Part shown: positions 9,608 through 30,691 of the stretch, piece after piece
Numbering within the stretch: the stretch's first letter is position 1
Layout: each line of letters opens with the position of its first letter
From: a virus
DNA length: 64,000 nucleotides
IMG/VR virus record: IMGVR_UViG_3300032291_002550
Coordinates: 96,436 to 160,435 of that record
Strand: one strand, 5' to 3'
The notes under the pieces: generated by a model
Databases searched by the model: none
What the model saw: only the letters and a program-made list of their open reading frames with translations
What the model was told of the DNA's origin: nothing
Translations under genes and position numbers: made by a program

Positions 9608-9681
9608 AGTCAGGTAATTCAATTGGATAGAAAGCCTATGCAGCGCAGCGGAAAATGTGGGTTCGAATCCCGCCCTGACTA
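9608..9681 (+). ncRNA. tRNA-like element (AGTCAGG/CCTGACT family), no canonical anticodon arm
   Basis: Acceptor AGTCAGG/CCTGACT-A, D-loop-like AATTGGATA, T-arm GTGGG-TTCGAAT-CCCGC. Confidence 0.75.
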
Positions 9682-10608: not shown

Positions 10609-10736
10609 AGTTAGGTGGTGTAATTGGTAATCACACCTTGCAAGTGAGTAATAGGGTAAGTGAGTCAATAGCACTGCTCGGCTTGATAGCCTCACGACAG
10701 GGAAACAAATTGCAGGTTCGAATCCTGTCCTGACTA
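10609..10736 (+). ncRNA. tRNA-like element with expanded central domain
   Basis: AGTTAGG/CCTGACT-A, D-arm GTG-TAATTGGTAAT-CAC, T-arm GCAGG-TTCGAAT-CCTGT, unrelated ~75-nt insert. Confidence 0.75.
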
Positions 10737-14430: not shown

Positions 14431-16305
14431 ATGAGTTTTAAAATAAATAGTTTATATCTTACAGACGGATATAAGGTTGGTCACAAGAAAATGTTAGCTA
14501 AAGGTACAACAAAGCTATACGGAACATGGATTCCTAGAAGTACTAAACATGCCCCTAAGGGTGTTACGAAAATTGTATCATTCGGTCAACAATTGGTTTG
14601 GAAATGGTTACATGATGAATTTGAAGAAAATTTCTTTTTTACGGAACAGAAAAAATTAATGAACTTTTCTGACCCGGCCAGAACAAATCAAAAAAGTGAA
14701 TTAAAAGCTAAAGCGCTTCAATTCACAAAAGATATGTCCCTATACTTAGGTATGGAGTATGACGGTAAACATTTCGAAGAATTGTGGGACTTAGGTTACT
14801 TACCTATTAAAGTAAAAGCATTACCTGAAGGTATTGAAACAGGAACTAATATTCCTCATATGACCTTTATAAATACAGTTGATGGGTTTGCTTGGTTAAC
14901 ATTATATCTTGAAACTGTAGTTAGTTCATTAGCTTGGAAACCAAGTACAGCAGCAACTATTGCTAAATTGTATAGAAGACAAGCTGAAGAATGGGTAGCT
15001 AAAACAGACCCAAGTAATATGTGGTTAGTTGATTTTATGTGTCATGATTTCTCTGCTAGAGGATTAGACCCGATGAGTCAATACCTAATTGGTTTAGGTC
15101 ATGCTACATCATTTAAAGGTAGTGATACATTACCTGTTATTCCTGCTGCTAGATATTTTTATGGAGTTAAAGAAGATGAAATGCCTATCTATAGTGTTAA
15201 TGCGTCAGAACATTCAGTATCAACTACAAAGATTTTTACAGTAGGTGAACAACAAATGATTGCTGATTGGTTAAAGGATTTTGATAAAGGTATTTTATCA
15301 ATAGTAGCTGATACATTTGATTTATGGAAACTAATTACAGAATATTTACCAGCTAATAAAGAAGCTATTATGGCTCGTGATGGTAAATTAGTAATTCGCC
15401 CTGACTCTGGAGATCCTGTTGATATTATTTGCGGATTAAATATTCCCGAATATGATAGTTTAGTTGATGCCGAGGAATCATTTAGAGATGAGTTGTATAA
15501 TAACCAAGTGCATGGAGAAGATATGTTTTCAATTGATGAAACGCGACTGGTAAAAGTTGAAGATAAATATTATAAATTAACAGCAGATGTTGATTGGAAC
15601 AGATATGATAAACAATACTATTTTATTGAATGTATTAGTTTTGGCGTTATAGAAGTAGAATCAACGCCAGCCTTTAAAGGCGTAATAGAATTACTTTGGG
15701 ATATATTTGGCGGGACAATTAACGAACAAGGATTCAAAGTTTTAGATCCACATATCGGAGCCATTTATGGTGACAGTATTACACCAGAACGTCAAGTTCA
15801 AATATATGAAAGATTAGCTGCTAAAGGATTTGCATCGACTAATATTGTATTAGGTGTAGGTAGTTTTACTTATCAATATAATACAAGAGATACATTAGGA
15901 TTTGCTGCTAAAGGCGCTTGGTTTGAGGTTGAGGATAGAATTGTATTTTTTGCTGCTAAAGGCGCTTGGTTTGAGGTTGAGGATAGAATTGTATTTACTA
16001 ATAAAAATGGTAATCTTGACGAAGAATTTGTAAAAACTGCTTATAATATTTATAAAGATCCAATTACAGATGATGGTACAAAGAAATCATTAAAAGGTTT
16101 ATTACAAGTAGAAGAAGTTAACACTTATAAAGGTGGTGATAAAGTAAAAACAGATTATATAGTATTACAAGAATGTACCCCTGAAGAAGAAAATAAAGGA
16201 ATGCTTCAAGTAATTTATGAAGATGGTAAATTCTTTAATCAAGTTACTCTAAATGAAATTAGAGAAAGATTACAAAGTGCTATAACAATAGCTATAGGAA
16301 AATAA
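14431..16305 (+). CDS. nadV: nicotinamide phosphoribosyltransferase-like protein (candidate Namat)
   Basis: TDGYK..H, HDFSARG, SEHS, IRPDSGDP, IYGDSIT and K.P.TD.G.KKSLKG motifs. Confidence 0.9.
   Translation: MSFKINSLYLTDGYKVGHKKMLAKGTTKLYGTWIPRSTKHAPKGVTKIVSFGQQLVWKWLHDEFEENFFFTEQKKLMNFSDPARTNQKSELKAKALQFTKDMSLYLGMEYDGKHFEELWDLGYLPIKVKALPEGIETGTNIPHMTFINTVDGFAWLTLYLETVVSSLAWKPSTAATIAKLYRRQAEEWVAKTDPSNMWLVDFMCHDFSARGLDPMSQYLIGLGHATSFKGSDTLPVIPAARYFYGVKEDEMPIYSVNASEHSVSTTKIFTVGEQQMIADWLKDFDKGILSIVADTFDLWKLITEYLPANKEAIMARDGKLVIRPDSGDPVDIICGLNIPEYDSLVDAEESFRDELYNNQVHGEDMFSIDETRLVKVEDKYYKLTADVDWNRYDKQYYFIECISFGVIEVESTPAFKGVIELLWDIFGGTINEQGFKVLDPHIGAIYGDSITPERQVQIYERLAAKGFASTNIVLGVGSFTYQYNTRDTLGFAAKGAWFEVEDRIVFFAAKGAWFEVEDRIVFTNKNGNLDEEFVKTAYNIYKDPITDDGTKKSLKGLLQVEEVNTYKGGDKVKTDYIVLQECTPEEENKGMLQVIYEDGKFFNQVTLNEIRERLQSAITIAIGK
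15901..15996 (+). repeat. perfect 48-bp in-frame tandem duplication
   Basis: TTTGCTGCTAAAGGCGCTTGGTTTGAGGTTGAGGATAGAATTGTATTT x2 (FAAKGAWFEVEDRIVF x2). Confidence 0.95.
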
Positions 16306-16313
16306 TAAGGGTT

Positions 16314-16438
16314 AGTCAGGTGGCGGAATGGTAGACGCTACCCAGATAACAGCCGAAAGGTGGGGATTAATCAGAATAGTTATTCTGAAATGCACTAACG
16401 AAACAGATTAATTACAGGTTCGAATCCTGTCCTGACTA
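16314..16438 (+). ncRNA. tRNA-like element with expanded central domain
   Basis: AGTCAGG/CCTGACT-A, Leu-like D-arm GCG-GAATGGTAGA-CGC, perfect T-arm, insert with CC-GAAA-GG and TCAGAATA/TATTCTGA hairpins. Confidence 0.8.
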
Positions 16439-16455
16439 CTAATAATATAACAAAT

Positions 16456-17592
16456 ATGGAAAATTTAAATAGTGTGTGTTTTGTAGCACGAATTGATGAA
16501 ATAAAAGAAATTGCTGGAGCCGATAATATTGTTCAGGCCGTTGTCGGCGGTTGGAACTGTATTATACAAAAAGGTCAGTATACCGAAGGTGGATTAGTAA
16601 TCGTAGCAACTACGGATGCCGTAATTCCTCAAGAATTATCAGATGAGATGAACGTAACTAATTATTTACGTAAAGGTAACCGTGTTCGTACCGTTAAGTT
16701 ACGAGGCGTATATTCTGAATGCTTAATTATACCATTAAAATATATTCCTAAGGGTAATATTAATGCGTATACCGAAGGTAAAGATATGATGGAGGTAATG
16801 AATATCTTTAAATATGAACCGCCCGTTAAGCAAATTCAATTAGCGTCAGGTAAAAAGATTCGTTACCAAGATAATCCTAACTTCCATGTTTACTACAAAT
16901 TTCCAAACTTAAAAAATGTTAAAGGGATGTTTACGGAAGAAGATGATGTTCAAATTACTCGTAAACTTCACGGAACTAATGCTCGTTATGGTATTGTATT
17001 AAAAAATAAATTATCATTATGGGATAAAGTAAAGAAGTTTCTTTATCTTGCAGATGAATGGGTTGATTATGAATATGTAGTCGGGTCACATAACGTAGAA
17101 AAAGGTAGCGATTCTCAAGGATTTTATGATACAAATGTTTGGTATGAAATAGCAAATAAGTATCAAATTAAAGAAAAGTTGTGGCAATTTGTTAAGGAAA
17201 ATTATAGCCCTGAAGAATTAGGTTCAGGATTATCTATGTACGGTGAAATTTATGGAGCTGGTATTCAAAAGAACTATGATTATGGGTTAAAAAATATTGA
17301 GTTTGCAATATTCGATGTTACTAAAAATGGTACGTATTGGCCAACATTTTATACCGAAGTATTTGCATCTGCAGGAATTGAATTACCTCACGTGCCTATA
17401 CTATATGATGGACCATGGTCTCAAGAAATTCAAGACAAATATACGTTTAATAACTTTATTGAAGGTACTAAAGTTCCGCACGAAGGTATTGTAATTAAAC
17501 ATGTAAGTGGCGAAAGAAATAAAGTAGCTAAAGTAATTAATCCGGATTACTTAATTTACGGAGAAAAACATAACGTAGGAGATAGTCATTAA
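16456..17592 (+). CDS. ATP-dependent RNA ligase (DRB0094/Rnl5-like, N-terminal OB fold)
   Basis: ADNI..A.V.GW, KLRGVYSE, motif I KLHGTN, GEIYG, FD, EGIVIK, K.INPDY. Confidence 0.88.
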   Translation: MENLNSVCFVARIDEIKEIAGADNIVQAVVGGWNCIIQKGQYTEGGLVIVATTDAVIPQELSDEMNVTNYLRKGNRVRTVKLRGVYSECLIIPLKYIPKGNINAYTEGKDMMEVMNIFKYEPPVKQIQLASGKKIRYQDNPNFHVYYKFPNLKNVKGMFTEEDDVQITRKLHGTNARYGIVLKNKLSLWDKVKKFLYLADEWVDYEYVVGSHNVEKGSDSQGFYDTNVWYEIANKYQIKEKLWQFVKENYSPEELGSGLSMYGEIYGAGIQKNYDYGLKNIEFAIFDVTKNGTYWPTFYTEVFASAGIELPHVPILYDGPWSQEIQDKYTFNNFIEGTKVPHEGIVIKHVSGERNKVAKVINPDYLIYGEKHNVGDSH

Positions 17593-19499: not shown

Positions 19500-19857
19500 G
19501 GGGGTGAATGGATTTGACAGGAGTGGTCAGCCAATTAACGATTATGCGATGGGTGATATCTTACATCTAAATGAATATCAAAAACAAACGCAAACAAAAA
19601 CATCATTAGCCAAGATTCTAGGAATTTCGCTAATCAAGTAGAAGCAAAGATCATTTCTTTAGTTAGAAACGAATACGTAGCAATTGCAGCTTAGTAATAA
19701 GCAAAGAGTTTAATCAAACTTAAAATGATTTGGTGGTAGTTGACCTTAATCGGTTAGCCCGTTTGAAGCATTACAAATTAAAAGAAATGCAAATCAAGCA
19801 TATTAAAGTCGTTAGTAAGCAGCTAGCTGGACCGGGGTTCGAAACCCCGCACCTCCA
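19500..19857 (+). ncRNA. ssrA: tmRNA
   Basis: 5' GGGGGTG pairs with 3' CACCTCC-A (G3:U alanine identity), GGATTTGAC motif, T-arm CGGGG-TTCGAAA-CCCCG, internal tag ORF 19590-19694 ending YVAIAA*. Confidence 0.92.
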
Positions 19858-19920
19858 CTTAGGTCCTTTTTTGAAATTGGGCAAAAATAAAAAATCTTTT
19901 AAAAAAAAATAAAAAAAGAT

Positions 19921-20090
19921 TAGGAAATTTAAAATGTTTTTCTTATATTTAAGTATATTAAAAAATAAGAAATAAGTAAGAAAATAAAAAAATCTTTAAA
20001 AAAATAAAAAAAAAGGTTGTTTATTTGAAATATTTATCTTATATTTAAGTATATTAGAAATTAAGAAAATAAGATTCGTTCTTTGAAAAT
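19921..20090 (+). promoter_or_regulatory. tandem promoters plus boxA-like site upstream of the giant ncRNA
   Basis: Motif copies at 19921 and 20017; GTTCTTTGAAAAT at 20078-20090. Confidence 0.65.
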
Positions 20091-20970
20091 ATTATTATCC
20101 ATTTAATCATCTCCTTGAAAGCTTCGGTTGGATTGGAGAGGGTTAATAAATGATAATCGGTGGCATATAATCGTTAAATAAACTACGAAAGTAGTATAAA
20201 GTGAATTGGTTTGACTGAACCAGTTTGCGGTTCCGAAAGGAGCTTAAGTATGCAAGTGAGATATCATTAAACCTTTAGTATCGAGGGTAACACTATAGAG
20301 AATGTGGTTTAGTGACTAGCCTATGTGGGTAGGTTAGTTGAGTTCGGAAGAACAATAAAAATAACTCATAGAATATTTGCAAAAAATATACTTATCCAAG
20401 TATATTATTGCGTTATTCAATATAAGAGAAATCTTAAAACCGAAAGGTATGTAGATGTACAGGTGGTGCTGTTATTTACCTTATTTATAATCTACCAAGG
20501 TTATTTATTCGAAGAATTCTTAAAATATGAGGATGGGGACATCCTAGAGAGTAGTTAAGTATCTGCCCTGACAAAATTAGGGTTGGCTTATTGACAGGCC
20601 ACTACTTTCAATCATCCACAAGTCACAAACTTATTTGCATTATGATTGCAAAATCTAAAAATAAATAAGCAAAAGTGCTTGTCAGCTACGGACGAAAGAT
20701 GCCTACATAGTAATGAGTTGTTCATTGCCACTAAAGGTCGCAAGCCAATAGTGATTTTACGGAAAAGTTTATAGTCCCGCAAGGATTAATCAGGTCGGCA
20801 GATTTGAATAGATAGAGTAAATAGAGAGTAGTCCAAATAAATGTAGCTTAAAGAGTGGTTCACTTAAATAACCGGCATTGCTAGAATAGATTTCAAAAGA
20901 ATCTGGACAAATTGGGAAAACAAAATAATCCAATAAAAGATTTAGCATTTAAAGGTATAGTCTCAGCCTT
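20091..20970 (+). ncRNA. giant structured ncRNA, GOLLD-like (boundaries approximate)
   Basis: ~880 nt with no credible ORF and many tetraloop hairpins (ACTAC-GAAA-GTAGT, TCC-GAAA-GGA, ACC-GAAA-GGT, TCC-GCAA-GGA, AGC-TTCG-GTT); own promoters; ends just before a tRNA. Confidence 0.65.
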
Positions 20971-21693: not shown

Positions 21694-21766
21694 GATAACA
21701 TAGTAAGTAAGATAGTTACTTCGTTTTTGGATATGATAAAATACTATCTTCAATAATCTTGTTATT
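21694..21766 (+). ncRNA. minimal Y-RNA-like element (TAGTAA..GTTACTTCG family)
   Basis: ATAACA/TGTTAT and AAGATAGT/ACTATCTT stems; shares TAGTAA, GTTACTTCG and CAATAATCT with the elements downstream of Ro60. Confidence 0.6.
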
Positions 21767-22207: not shown

Positions 22208-22281
22208 AGGATCATGGTTGAATGGTTTACAATGCCGGCTTGTCACGCCGTGTGGTGCGGGTTCGAATCCCGTTGGTCCTG
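22208..22281 (+). tRNA. tRNA-Asp (GTC)
   Basis: CGGC-TTGTCAC-GCCG. Confidence 0.85.
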
Positions 22282-22291
22282 CAAAATAAAT

Positions 22292-22364
22292 AGCGTAGTA
22301 GCCTAATGGTTGAGGTACTTCATTTGGGATGAAGACGATGTCGGTTCGAGTCCGGTCTACGCTA
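22292..22364 (+). tRNA. tRNA-Pro (TGG)
   Basis: CTTCA-TTTGGGA-TGAAG. Confidence 0.88.
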
Positions 22365-23693: not shown

Positions 23694-23767
23694 GAAGCGT
23701 TGTTCTAGTCTGGTTCAAGGCACTCCCGTGGAAGGGTGAGACATAGGTTCGAATCCTATACGCTTTA
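23694..23767 (+). tRNA. tRNA-like, undetermined (8-nt anticodon loop)
   Basis: GAAGCGT/ACGCTTT, perfect T-arm, CACTC-CCGTGGAA-GGGTG. Confidence 0.5.
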
Positions 23768-23776
23768 CAAAAATAT

Positions 23777-23849
23777 GTCGATGTGGATGAATGGTTTAGT
23801 CACCAACCTGATAAGTTGGTCAATGTGAGTTCAAATCTCACCATCGATA
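23777..23849 (+). tRNA. tRNA-Ile (GAT)
   Basis: CCAAC-CTGATAA-GTTGG. Confidence 0.88.
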
Positions 23850-25006: not shown

Positions 25007-26653
25007 ATGTCAAAGTTCAGAAACGCAAAGTTAGCATCTACAGTAGGTGCATTGCAACCAAAATCAAATTTAGTAGCAGCAGCTGCAATACCAGCTCCTA
25101 ATACTACAAACATTCAAGGTCACAAAGCTTATACTCAAGATAAGTGGCTTAGGTTATTAACCATGCTTAATACTTTAAAATTAGAAAATCAATTTTATCG
25201 TAACGAAAGCAAAACAGCATTAGAGTTAAAATCATTAATTACCGATTGTGCTCATTCCGACCCATATTTTACAGCGCAATGTATTGTATATTCTCGTTGT
25301 ATGGGAGAAGGTATGCGTTCAATCAATCATTTAGCAGCTGTTTACTTAGCTCCATACCTTGCTGGCCAAGATTGGGGTAAAAGATTCTATGCTTCATGGA
25401 ATAAGAAAGATTTAAAAGGCGGAACGGTATTTCGTCCGGATGATATTTCTGAAATGGTTGCAGCATATAGCGCATTAAATATTAATCCTGAGACTAATAA
25501 ACCATTTGCGATTACAAATGCAATGAAGAAAGGATTTAAGTCTGCAATTGAGTCTATGGATTCATATAGTGTTCTTAAATATAAGAGTTCGTTGTTAGAT
25601 ATTATTAATCTTGTTCACCCTAATCCAGCAGAATCTAAAGCATTCGTTAGATATGGAGATAAGAAAGTTTCAGTATTTGAAGCTGTCATGAAAGGATATA
25701 ATGTATCAGCTGATACTTGGGAAGTAGCTCAATCAGATGCCGGGCAAATAGTTGCAAAGGCTGTTAAAGAAGGAAAGCTTTCAAAAGAAGATGCAGAAGT
25801 AGTTTTACGTGAAGCAAAGGCTGAAAATTGGGAGTCAATGTTAGTTGATGGTAAATTAGGTATTTTAGCTGCATTACGTAATATACGTAGTATTTTATTA
25901 GCTAAATCTAATTCGAATACAATTGACTTACTTTGCAAATTAATATCAGACCCTGAAGCTATACGTAAAGGTAAAATAATGCCTTTCCAAATAGATATGG
26001 CAAATGAAGTATTATTAGCAGAATTTAGCGATTCTAATGCTCGTAAAATTTCAACAGCCCTTTTAAAGGGTTATGAATTAGCATTACCGAATTTAGCTGA
26101 ACTATTATCGGGAGATACATTAGTAATGGTAGATTTTTCTGGTTCTATGTCTTCAATTGTTACAGACCCGACTCGTAAGATGCGTTATAAAAGCTCAGCA
26201 ATGACTAAGGCTGCATTAATTGCTGCTACAATTGCTAAAGCAACTAACGGAGATATAATTCGTTTTGGTTCTAGTGCTGAATATGTAAATTACAATCCTA
26301 ATTTAGATGTATTTACATTAGCTAATTCGATTAAGAAAGAAATGGGTGGTACATCATTGTCTATGGCATGGAATTGCGCAAAAAACTCTAAAAAGAAATA
26401 TACAAGAGTATTTATTCTTTCAGATAATGAATGTAATGTAGGCTCTACATATAAATTTTATTCAGAGTACGTTGAAAGCGTTGGCGACCCATATGTATAT
26501 TCGGTAGATTTAGCTGCTTATGGTACAAATTGCATTGCAGGTCCAAAAGTTCGTTATTACTACGGGTTTGGGTATTCTATGTTTGATGATATTGCATCTA
26601 ATGAATTTAATGCAAATTATCACTTAGAAAAAGTAAAGAAAATTCAAATTTAA
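25007..26653 (+). CDS. rsr: Ro60/Rsr-like TROVE + vWA RNA-binding protein
   Basis: TROVE features (N..G..AY, FY, R..G.MRS, HP.P, TWE, ALRNIR, PFQ) and C-terminal vWA DFSGSM...GGT...SDNE. Confidence 0.88.
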   Translation: MSKFRNAKLASTVGALQPKSNLVAAAAIPAPNTTNIQGHKAYTQDKWLRLLTMLNTLKLENQFYRNESKTALELKSLITDCAHSDPYFTAQCIVYSRCMGEGMRSINHLAAVYLAPYLAGQDWGKRFYASWNKKDLKGGTVFRPDDISEMVAAYSALNINPETNKPFAITNAMKKGFKSAIESMDSYSVLKYKSSLLDIINLVHPNPAESKAFVRYGDKKVSVFEAVMKGYNVSADTWEVAQSDAGQIVAKAVKEGKLSKEDAEVVLREAKAENWESMLVDGKLGILAALRNIRSILLAKSNSNTIDLLCKLISDPEAIRKGKIMPFQIDMANEVLLAEFSDSNARKISTALLKGYELALPNLAELLSGDTLVMVDFSGSMSSIVTDPTRKMRYKSSAMTKAALIAATIAKATNGDIIRFGSSAEYVNYNPNLDVFTLANSIKKEMGGTSLSMAWNCAKNSKKKYTRVFILSDNECNVGSTYKFYSEYVESVGDPYVYSVDLAAYGTNCIAGPKVRYYYGFGYSMFDDIASNEFNANYHLEKVKKIQI

Positions 26654-26750
26654 TTTGGAATTTTAAAATATTTATATTATATTTAAGTATAGGTTAGGAG
26701 GTAATCCTAACTTATATTTAAAAATAAATCGTTCTTTTAAATAAAAATAT

Positions 26751-26899
26751 TAGTAAGATAGTAATGTTGTAAGTTACTTCGCATATTGGTTCGATTCCAA
26801 TATTTTCCGCCAACAATTGGAAAATTAGACAAACGGTTAAGTCAAAACTCTTATAAAGTTTCATAGAAAAACACACTTACTCAAATAATCTTCTTACTT
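26751..26899 (+). ncRNA. Y-RNA-like element carrying a circularly permuted tRNA (anticodon TAT)
   Basis: Outer stems AGTAAGA/TCTTACT and GTAAGT/ACTTAC enclose, in order: T-arm (26785-26801), ATTTTCC-GCCA, linker, GGAAAAT, D-arm, AAACT-CTTATAA-AGTTT. Confidence 0.75.
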
Positions 26900-26906
26900 A
26901 AAATAT

Positions 26907-27038
26907 TTACTAGTAGTAATAGGTAATCGTTACTTCGAAAATTAGCTCAGTTGGTTGAGCGTTTATATGCTAAATAAAAGGTCGTTGGTTCAACTCCAAC
27001 ATTTTCAATCAAATCACGATCCTAACTTTCTCTAGTAA
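26907..27038 (+). ncRNA. Y-RNA-like element carrying an in-order tRNA-like domain (anticodon GCT)
   Basis: TTACTAG/CTAGTAA and ATCGT/ACGAT stems with GTTACTTCG enclose a GAAAAT...ATTTTC cloverleaf at 26937-27006. Confidence 0.72.
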
Positions 27039-29921: not shown

Positions 29922-30188
29922 ATGTTAGATATATTATATTTTTCTGCACCGTGGTGTGGTCCTTGCAGAGCAATGAAACCTGCAATTGATAAATTTGAAG
30001 AAGCTTTAGATACTACTAAAGCAAAACTTAAAAGAGTTAATGTTGATGAAGATGCTGATTTAGTATCATTATACAATGTACATGCAGTGCCTACATTTAT
30101 ATTTGTTAAAGATTCTAATAAAGTAGAATCATTTACAGGCGTTATAGCTATTAATAAACTTCAAGATACCGTAGAAAAATGGAGCTAA
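29922..30188 (+). CDS. trxA: thioredoxin
   Basis: WCGPC active site, VPT. Confidence 0.92.
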   Translation: MLDILYFSAPWCGPCRAMKPAIDKFEEALDTTKAKLKRVNVDEDADLVSLYNVHAVPTFIFVKDSNKVESFTGVIAINKLQDTVEKWS

Positions 30189-30691
30189 CACTTATACCTA
30201 AAGAAGATATTCAATCAAGAATCGAGACTTTAGCAAATGAAATTAACAAAGACTATTCAAGTAATAATTCTGTTGTGTGTGTGTGCGTACTACGTGGCGC
30301 TTTTTTGTTCTTTTCTGATTTAGTCAGAAAACTTAACCTAGATGTTGATATTGAATTTATTCAAGCTTCGAGTTATGAAAATGGAACTGAGAATCAAGGA
30401 TTAACAATTAAATCTAAATTAAGTTATAACGTAAAAGATAAGACAGTATTTTTAATAGATGATATTGTAGACTCTGGTAATACTTTAAATCAATTATCTA
30501 TTATCTTTAAAGATTTAGGCGCTAGAGATGTTAAAACAGTAGCATTAGTTTGCAGGCCTCAAAGTCAAACATTAGTAGATTATTATGGATTTGTAATTGG
30601 AGATGAATGGATTTATGGGTATGGATTAGATTTACAAGGCAAAAAAAGAACTTTATTAGATATTAAATATATAGAACAAAACATTGACTAA
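30179..30691 (+). CDS. hpt: hypoxanthine phosphoribosyltransferase
   Basis: VLRGAFLFFSDL, SSY, IDDIVDSGNTL, GYGLD. Confidence 0.92.
   Translation: MELTLIPKEDIQSRIETLANEINKDYSSNNSVVCVCVLRGAFLFFSDLVRKLNLDVDIEFIQASSYENGTENQGLTIKSKLSYNVKDKTVFLIDDIVDSGNTLNQLSIIFKDLGARDVKTVALVCRPQSQTLVDYYGFVIGDEWIYGYGLDLQGKKRTLLDIKYIEQNID

Follow-up and report, generated by a model that had tools for sequence, protein, structure and literature searches.

In this article, I will discuss a small RNA gene of a phage in which a conserved stem structure, here called the handle, encloses what reads as an entire transfer RNA (tRNA) whose parts stand in circularly permuted order. The gene lies at 26752-26898 on the plus strand of a 64,000-nucleotide stretch of viral DNA (the window; positions 96,436 to 160,435 of IMG/VR virus record IMGVR_UViG_3300032291_002550), and it directly follows the phage's own Ro60 gene, on the same strand and 98 nucleotides (nt) downstream of that open reading frame (ORF), just as the initial annotation of this DNA had noted. 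It is a real, well-conserved RNA gene, and I am highly confident that its structure and family are those of a phage Y RNA of the YrlA type enclosing a complete circularly permuted tRNA. The wider statement, in which the RNA also binds Ro60 and serves as a mimic or adaptor, is probable; binding, cleavage and the mimic role are what I infer. The variant is apparently undescribed but widespread in phages, and it differs from the described YrlA RNAs in the position of its handle and in the anticodon arm that it keeps. The effector half of bacterial Y RNAs is a known tRNA mimic, the partner and purpose of which have been unknown since 2014, and the described forms are without an anticodon loop. A phage subclass carrying a full tRNA widens the field of candidate partners, making readers of the anticodon limb or of the whole L-shape plausible in addition to elbow readers, with the Ro60 handle attached at the only position in which a long arm is naturally tolerated by tRNAs.

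All of the parts named in the initial annotation (closing stem, T arm, acceptor strands, GCCA, linker, D arm and anticodon arm) are present where it placed them. The bounds of the RNA are the ends of its outer stem, not mapped transcript ends, as given by the RNAalifold consensus of 37 sequences and by a minimum-free-energy fold. Read 5' to 3' on the plus strand, the RNA begins with an outer closing stem (AGTAAGA, 26752-26758, pairing with TCTTACT, 26892-26898), all seven pairs of which have undergone compensatory changes among the 37 sequences, and the 3' strand of which (26892-26898) is overlapped by the TTCTC box of the family. The handle loop TAGTAAT (26759-26765) forms a conserved column block in the whole-RNA alignment, with the family consensus GUAGYAA about 7 nt before GUUACUUC; it sits where the bacterial Ro60-adjacent RNAs have a G-rich GUGCGNAG-type motif (GUGCGNAG or GUGCCGUAG in the relatives compared), and is a candidate for the Ro60 contact. 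The inner closing stem (GTAAG, 26769-26773, with CTTAC, 26876-26880; five predicted pairs, four with compensatory changes) leads into the handle motif GTTACTTCG (26773-26781), which contains the YUAY conserved in YrlA and in which GTTACTTC is invariant in the 30-sequence seed. What remains of the variable region is CAT (26782-26784, where T26784 is tRNA position 48), followed by the T arm ATTGG-TTCGATT-CCAAT (26785-26801), which is 100% paired with covariation in three of its five pairs, and whose G53-C61 pair and TTCGANT loop are invariant in the seed alignment. The 3' acceptor strand ATTTTCC (26802-26808) precedes its 5' partner GGAAAAT (26819-26825) in a 7-base-pair (bp) stem that is 97.7% paired and covaries at all seven positions, and the loop between the two strands opens with GCCA (discriminator plus CCA, 26809-26812) and continues with the linker ACAATT (26813-26818), at the end of which the RNase P site is predicted (26818/26819). 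U8-A9 and the D arm GAC-AAACGGTTAA-GTC (26826-26843 together, the D arm being 26828-26843; stem 100% paired, two of three pairs covarying) are separated by a single A from the anticodon arm AAACT-CTTATAA-AGTTT (26845-26861; 100% paired, five of five pairs covarying), which carries the anticodon TAT at 26852-26854. A 14-nt 3' junction, CATAGAAAAACACA (26862-26875), which according to the whole-RNA alignment is A-rich in the family and has CAC at its end, leads back into the closing stems. A minus-strand ORF across the same region (26718-26876; 52 amino acids, GTG start) is taken as spurious because the conservation there is that of base-pair compensation.

The evidence that carries this structure is comparative. 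Viral contigs were scanned for GTTACTTC followed within 3-12 nt by the core of a T arm, giving at least 119 loci, and a covariance model of 87 positions and 20 pairs, R1, was built from 30 parsed examples. At least 37 distinct homologues in phage contigs score 57-93 bits under R1; these distinct full members make up the 37-sequence set, and all counts out of 37 given here are among the matches listed. In their model-based alignment, 99.2% of the cells of the 20 pairs are paired, versus 24-48% after a shift of the 3' partners by 1-3 columns, and compensatory changes are seen in 17 of the 20 modelled pairs, with all four arms covarying and all five pairs of the anticodon stem among them, which was the check across homologues that the initial annotation had proposed. 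Two further checks are independent of R1. First, from whole-RNA sequences aligned simply with MAFFT, RNAalifold recovered both closing stems along with the T, acceptor and anticodon stems. Second, among 44 elements chosen solely for having the motif, a T arm, an acceptor stem of 7 bp and a D arm, a perfect 5-bp/7-nt hairpin follows the D stem at a distance of exactly 1 nt in 31, as compared with 0-3 at other offsets and a shuffle mean of 0.36. The handle itself recurs in several RNAs near each Ro60 gene in nine contigs, mostly downstream of the gene, in the pattern GUAGYAA-N7-GUUACUUCG ... CAC-N7 ... UUCUC.

These same comparisons make it scarcely credible that the RNA is a functionless, decaying remnant of tandem tRNA genes. 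R1 also scores the junctions between neighbouring tRNA genes, as at 22242-22334 (40.7 bits), and a tRNA-tRNA junction is thus topologically similar to the permuted module; however, family members reach 57-93 bits whereas most junctions score 31-45 and a few up to about 57, the acceptor strands are unpaired in junctions, and all helices of the RNA covary across phages with Ro60 proteins that are 36-79% identical, so that decay is contradicted by the covariation. In the window, the junctions scored by R1 (22242-22334 and 23736-23819, about 39-41 bits) are composed of the T arm of one tRNA and the D and anticodon arms of the next. This equivalence fits the published idea that YrlA originated from a tRNA dimer, in the layout of which the T arm and 3' acceptor-CCA of one tRNA are followed by a spacer and then by the 5' acceptor, D and anticodon arms of the next tRNA, and the phage subclass resembles a living intermediate for such an origin.

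To return to the enclosed module as a complete permuted tRNA, the Levitt 15:48 pair is A:U in 19 members and G:C in 18 with no mismatch among the 37, U8 is found in 35 and A14 in all 37, and the G18G19 of the D loop are invariant in the seed alignment. When the handle is deleted and the remaining sequence re-permuted in silico, a rearrangement that the initial annotation had suggested for its own tRNA search, ARAGORN calls a tRNA for 37 of 37 members and reads the window copy as a 76-nt tRNA-Ile(tat). The frame of the anticodon loop is canonical, with C or U at position 32, U33 in 36 of 37, A37 in 35 and A38 in 30. Covariation, RNAalifold and the Levitt pair agree with the proposal that the permutation point lies in the variable region and that all tRNA arms are kept. 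The handle would leave the tRNA body at the variable loop, resembling the long variable arm of a class II tRNA, and as a consequence of this exit the acceptor/T limb, the elbow and the anticodon limb would all be left exposed.

Now considering the family to which such an RNA belongs, the YrlA RNAs of bacteria and actinophages are encoded beside Ro60 on the same strand, and their Y stem takes the place of the anticodon stem, with the anticodon loop lacking (Chen 2014, PMC4201824; Wang 2018, 10.1101/312249), which is in agreement with what the initial annotation said of the Ro-binding stem. The order of a 5' strand, T arm, closed acceptor-like hairpin, D arm and 3' strand is the same in the phage RNA, as are the tRNA tertiary nucleotides in conserved T and D arms and a covarying 15:48 pair, the latter being the evidence with which Chen et al. 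argued for the tRNA fold of YrlA (PMC4201824). The YUAY described as conserved in YrlA (PMC4201824; 10.1101/312249) is also there before the T arm, as the UUAC inside the invariant GUUACUUC. Since GUUACUUC is common to the bacterial Ro60-adjacent RNAs and holds this YUAY, the phage RNA can be placed in the YrlA lineage. It departs from the described YrlA by keeping a separate, covarying 5-bp/7-nt anticodon arm after the D arm while the handle leaves from the variable region, in a strict 7-bp acceptor stem, in having GUAGUAA as its 5' motif rather than GNCGAAN0-1G, and in being without the V hairpin that YrlA often has before the T arm. A permuted whole tRNA with its handle at the variable loop was not described in the literature searched.

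Other known systems share single traits with this RNA. In the published model of Yrn1 of D. radiodurans (Chen 2014), a T arm is accompanied by a possible 'anticodon arm' on a 5-bp stem. However, that RNA is unpermuted, with a hairpin of 6-nt loop between the arms at the anticodon position, a doubtful D arm and a Ro-binding helix of the animal type. Permuted tRNA genes occur in Cyanidioschyzon merolae, other algae and archaea, where a circular intermediate formed at a bulge-helix-bulge motif gives ordinary tRNAs, and the permuted transfer-messenger RNA (tmRNA) genes of some bacteria give a two-piece tmRNA with a tag reading frame. In those genes, as in the phage RNA, the 3' acceptor half precedes the 5' half and the segment between the (N)CCA and the 5' end has to be cut. 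The phage RNA differs in that its closing helix is a conserved Ro60-linked handle and that it is the variable region which is interrupted; nothing points to circularisation or decoding of this RNA, in an analysis that made no search aimed at bulge-helix-bulge motifs.

The link with Ro60 is seen in the window and recurs among the relatives. The Ro60/TROVE gene (25007-26653, plus strand) encodes 548 amino acids with matches to the Pfam TROVE family (E 1.2e-6) and to the Ro60 vWA domain (E 2e-4), residues 24-506 match the structures 9KOP and 9L5Y of the Ro60 of Thermus phage phiLo (E 1.4e-6), and homologues at 37-79% identity are encoded in nine phage contigs. That phiLo protein, the closest solved relative, binds the gene-adjacent phage Y-like RNAs Yrl1 and Yrl2 and joins a host PNPase complex (PMC12135203); the two RNAs differ from the one discussed here in being stem-bulge-stem RNAs with a CGAA motif, for which no tRNA module or anticodon arm was reported (PMC12135203). 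The viral loci were recruited by the RNA motif alone. A Ro60 homologue lies in the fetched flank of 54 (about half) of the approximately 119 loci listed, and in 25 of the 39 loci with a complete permuted tRNA (overlapping loci counted). Ten further records were inspected, five of which hold Ro60 elsewhere while the five without Ro60 are fragments, 5-32% complete; every fairly complete record tested also encodes Ro60. In bacterial genomes, GUUACUUC with a T arm stands beside a Ro60 homologue in 24 loci, from genera including Amycolatopsis, Lentzea, Actinomadura, Pontibacter, Flavobacterium and Chitinophaga, and the handle motif is common to Ro60-adjacent RNAs of Actinomycetota, Bacteroidota and Bradyrhizobium. 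The form with a complete permuted tRNA was found in only one of 120 bacterial-genome loci (L230) versus about one third of the viral loci among the matches listed, a contrast that makes the variant essentially a phage feature in these samples. Some bacterial RNAs of this kind (L153 and L141, from Pontibacter and Bradyrhizobium) have a short hairpin with a GCAA or UUCG tetraloop directly after the D arm, in the position of the phage anticodon arm, of which it may be a reduced version.

Cultured phages were also searched. Ro60 homologues of less than 32% identity were detected by tblastn in Vibrio, Gordonia, Arthrobacter, Brevundimonas, Halogranum and crAss-like phages, and R1 returned no complete permuted tRNA near the Ro60 genes of the four such phages to which it was applied, so that this search yielded no tractable isolate. 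A blastn comparison of the RNA region with GenBank phages gave only a match the size of a T arm, to Klebsiella phage tRNAs. The crAss-like phage csAssE-Sib carries a handle variant, GAUACUUCGG, upstream of an annotated 'Ro sixty-related protein' (L255:9460-9563), in a partial form with a T arm and 7-bp acceptor hairpin that scores 35 bits and is without a matching anticodon arm.

Several points weigh against this account of the RNA. The window copy on its own folds only marginally better than its shuffles (z -1.9), and the case for the structure consequently rests on comparison; the 37 sequences behind that comparison were gathered by a motif and model derived from the family itself, which inflates the percentage paired, a recruitment bias that is lessened, though not removed, by the controls with shifted partners, by the MAFFT/RNAalifold result and by the null test on hairpin offsets. 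The Rfam YrlA model RF02553 (gathering threshold 69 bits) gives no match on 26600-26960 at E<=10, and in a search of the whole genome its only match, at 17.9 bits, is at a tRNA junction elsewhere; nor does the element match any other Rfam family at threshold, with E<=10 returning a partial tRNA match (15 bits) and chance matches. A full-length match to a described YrlA subclass, which would have removed the novelty, was thus not returned by RF02553; but this model also misses ten bacterial loci with the motif (seven of them with a Ro60 match) and the Gordonia phage Neville, so that it is a narrow test and its silence says little. The handle has GUAGUAA in the place of the published Ro-binding motif GNCGAAN0-1G, which as such does not occur in it. 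Finally, one metatranscriptome contig (X19; 174 nt, depth 5) covers 26841-27014, bridging the permuted-tRNA RNA and the next handle RNA, and is a weak hint that the two are co-transcribed, but this RNA-library contig could be contaminating DNA. The sequencing runs were compared as assembled contigs, from which transcript ends, strand and level are not readable; of the other RNA runs, X18 matches the Ro60 gene only and X20 gave no match.

If the parts are put together, the two-stem handle, with its GUAGYAA loop, GUUACUUCG junction and return-strand CAC...UUCUC, most likely binds the Ro60 encoded just upstream, in keeping with the binding of YrlA by Rsr (PMC4201824), and the complete permuted tRNA would be the effector module that this handle carries. 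The module most likely folds into the tRNA L-shape that the crystal structure of YrlA displays (10.1101/312249), and would either present Ro60 to proteins that recognize whole tRNAs or compete for them, with RNase P, modification enzymes, repair enzymes and anticodon-directed nucleases as candidate partners. The most probable role would be that of a Ro60-tethered full tRNA mimic, acting as adaptor or decoy in the tRNA and RNA-repair programme of the phage.

What the acceptor end may contribute is best judged against YrlA of M. smegmatis, the one YrlA with a 7-bp stem among those tested by Chen et al.; RNase P cuts it both in vitro and in vivo, and the RNA acquires a CCA (Chen 2014, PMC4201824). 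The cut falls at the tRNA 5' position, the upstream half ends in CCA, and both halves co-precipitate with Rsr (PMC4201824). The phage RNA has the same 7-bp acceptor stem, but it keeps an anticodon arm where the M. smegmatis RNA is without one, it encodes GCCA whereas CA is added after cleavage in M. smegmatis, and its cleavage is a prediction whereas that of the bacterial RNA was shown. Because of the 7-bp stem, U(-1), G(+1), the GCCA and this precedent, cleavage by RNase P at 26818/26819 is a reasonable prediction and likely, and would yield two pieces held together by the handle, as in M. smegmatis. The initial annotation had envisaged just such a two-piece RNA with a free CCA end after a cut in the linker: the encoded GCCA of the window copy speaks for it, while its novelty falls away, as the same has been published for M. 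smegmatis YrlA. Opening of the acceptor loop by RNase P is therefore no new kind of event, and it cannot hold for every member of the family. Of the 37 members, 8 have NCCA at the start of this loop, as compared with 0.44 expected from loop composition, and 7 of the 10 loops of at least 9 nt begin with it; the other 29 members are without NCCA, and in most of them the acceptor stem is closed by a short loop, generally 4-6 nt long. In a DNA run from a different freshwater sample, a strain variant carries G26809T, which alters the discriminator only and keeps the CCA (TCCA).

The same end of the molecule raises the question of whether this is a working permuted tRNA gene, in which RNase P and 3' trimming would free the GCCA and the pieces, or a ligated product of them, would be charged and read AUA (Ile), perhaps while carrying Ro60. 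I consider this very improbable, and a chargeable tRNA to be a long shot, even though the window copy combines a 7-bp acceptor stem, G1-C72, U(-1), the encoded GCCA, a full cloverleaf and a UAU anticodon in a phage of 29.8% G+C that is without a canonical UAU tRNA, NCCA is enriched well above expectation, and M. smegmatis YrlA acquires its CCA end in vivo. The preponderance of members with short loops and no NCCA is against it, as are the anticodons, which are unconserved: no columns of the RNA vary more than positions 34-36 (1.5-1.9 bits), and the anticodons are CAT, TGA, TAT, GCA, AAT, AAA, CTT, GTA, TAA, TCC, AGG, AAC, TGT, TTA, AAG and TTT, with TAT in 3 of 37 members, A34 in 7 and the stop anticodon TTA in one. 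Such a hypervariable triplet, taken family-wide, neither obeys bacterial decoding rules nor fills a need, and in most large arrays (L013, L015, L038, L045, L046 and L103) the same anticodon is found on a canonical phage tRNA as well, for which reason the filling of anticodon gaps was rejected as a general rule. In the window phage UAU is not duplicated on a canonical tRNA, but three CAU tRNAs are present, one of which may be tRNA-Ile2. Also, E. coli IleRS uses an A73 discriminator, whereas the phage RNA has G there (T in the strain variant), and the passage of a handle of about 25 bp with a 60-kDa protein on the variable arm through the ribosome would be unlikely. The suggestion of a chargeable AUA-reading tRNA is thus improbable as a function of the family.

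The variable anticodon is the starting point for a second possibility, which refines rather than excludes the tethered tRNA mimic: the Ro60-bound anticodon loop could serve as a decoy for, or a sensor of, host nucleases directed at anticodons and other proteins that read them, diverting attack from the real tRNAs or reporting it, and the hypervariable triplet would then be the mark of an arms race. In ten close pairs the triplet differs at 0.27 per site versus 0.064 for the rest of the RNA, approximately four times faster, while the loop frame of C/U32, U33, A37 and A38 is kept; identical anticodon stems bear up to three different anticodons, TCTAA/TTAGA for instance carrying GCA, AAA and CAT in different phages; and the handle RNA next door (26907-27038) varies between strains exactly at its anticodon triplet. 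The phage encodes an RNA ligase and phosphoesterases typical of tRNA-repair counter-defence, and a Ro60-like protein of phage Bas63 has been reported to counter a defence system (PMC11482910). However, fast change in the anticodon could reflect either diversifying selection on a mimicked loop or no constraint on three unpaired bases, and the linker of the acceptor loop is as free; the ten close pairs are a small sample and not independent, no matching nuclease or target was identified, and A34 anticodons, matching few natural bacterial tRNAs, would be odd for a decoy of real ones. On balance this explanation is possible but a minority one. A bolder extension concerns the NCCA members, in which RNase P would open a two-piece full tRNA with a free CCA, a real anticodon and Ro60 on its 'variable arm', that might be aminoacylated and engage the translation machinery, or else serve as an anticodon-specific bait coupling nuclease attack to Ro60-directed RNA decay or repair, its anticodon tracking host defences; I regard this as unlikely.

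The possibilities do not end with the permuted tRNA, as the window holds other RNAs built on the same handle. A second handle RNA follows directly at 26907-27038, with an ordinary-order tRNA as its cargo (26935-27010; 'tRNA-Ser gct' in ARAGORN, without a long variable arm), the first base of which is abutted by GTTACTTC. Its variation between close strains affects 26970-26972 (CTA to TGG), was seen in one DNA contig and one RNA-library contig, and gives the same ATGTGGA anticodon loop that the homologue in L001 has. A third, at 21694-21766 between tRNA genes and 5 kb upstream of Ro60, is composed of GTAAGTAA...GTTACTTCG, a short loop and the return strands, and holds no tRNA cargo. In the relatives (L001:294-5500, L003:2363-5700, L006 and L009) there are up to seven handle RNAs per locus and at least five types of cargo: none, T/acceptor/D modules of the classic YrlA-like kind (L001:970, L003:2363), the complete permuted tRNA, D/anticodon/variable/T modules in which the handle replaces the acceptor stem (L001:4793, L003:4916, L009:7063), and a whole tRNA. 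With one Ro60 gene and, next to it, several handle RNAs that differ in cargo, these phages offer a compact system in which to study the roles of Ro60-Y RNA particles in an infection.

This diversity could also be read another way, with the handle as a leader-trailer helix marking tRNA-like cargo for Ro60-assisted folding, quality control or timed release, and the permuted tRNA as one such cargo or a by-product. The same handle does bracket nothing (21694-21766), an ordinary tRNA (26907-27038), acceptor-less modules and the classic T/acceptor/D modules, and where the cargo is in ordinary order a normal-looking tRNA would be freed by RNase P and 3' processing. But in the permuted type, taking the handle away would break the tRNA body in two, the form without cargo shows that the handle does something by itself, and Ro60 binds Y RNAs stably rather than transiently (PMC4201824), which together leave this explanation quite improbable.

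Upstream of the permuted-tRNA RNA, the sequence offers some hints on expression. The 'own promoter' that had been proposed at 26655 is not supported, being a 9/12 consensus match of which 4 were found versus 4.4 expected in shuffled sequence. Between the Ro60 stop codon and the RNA gene, a plus-strand hairpin of 9 bp with a 5-nt loop (26691-26713), read from the sequence, is a possible weak terminator or processing hairpin; a search of it against Rfam gave only a sub-threshold chance match. A boxA-like box, GTTCTTTTAAAT, lies on the plus strand at 26731-26742, approximately 10 nt 5' of the Y-like RNA. The pattern GTTCTTT[G/T]AAA has three matches in the window versus 0.36 expected, a second copy being found at 20078-20089, shortly before the GOLLD RNA region, and in L001, L002, L003, L008 and L038 the first handle RNA has a similar GTTCTTTRAAAA box in front of it, which suggests that antitermination of the rRNA type may operate in these stable-RNA operons.

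The source record is a 196,980-bp phage sequence with direct terminal repeats, and the same phage sequence was found mainly in freshwater and lake metagenomes. The tRNA array in the window comprises about 26 tRNA genes, at the head of which a tmRNA (19500-19860, 72.5 bits) adjoins a full-length GOLLD RNA (20547-20969, 256 bits). Neighbouring genes encode an Rnl-type RNA ligase (16456-17592), an NAPRTase, a phosphoribosyltransferase, a YkuK-type RNase H-like protein and a metallophosphoesterase; the ligase, metallophosphoesterase, tmRNA and tRNAs all lie within 12 kb. The NAPRTase, RNA ligase and phosphoribosyltransferase (14431-17592 and 30179-30691) accompany Ro60 and the tRNA array, and the same set is found in the Gordonia phage Neville (L256), which encodes an RNA ligase, ribose-phosphate pyrophosphokinase, nicotinamide phosphoribosyltransferase, a Ro-like protein and tRNAs, its Ro60 being only 27% identical to that of the window. 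Outside the main array, Rfam tRNA matches of 37-39 bits occur at 9608-9681, 10609-10736 and 16314-16438, and two of these three low-scoring tRNA-like elements are 125-128 nt long, with oversized inserts.

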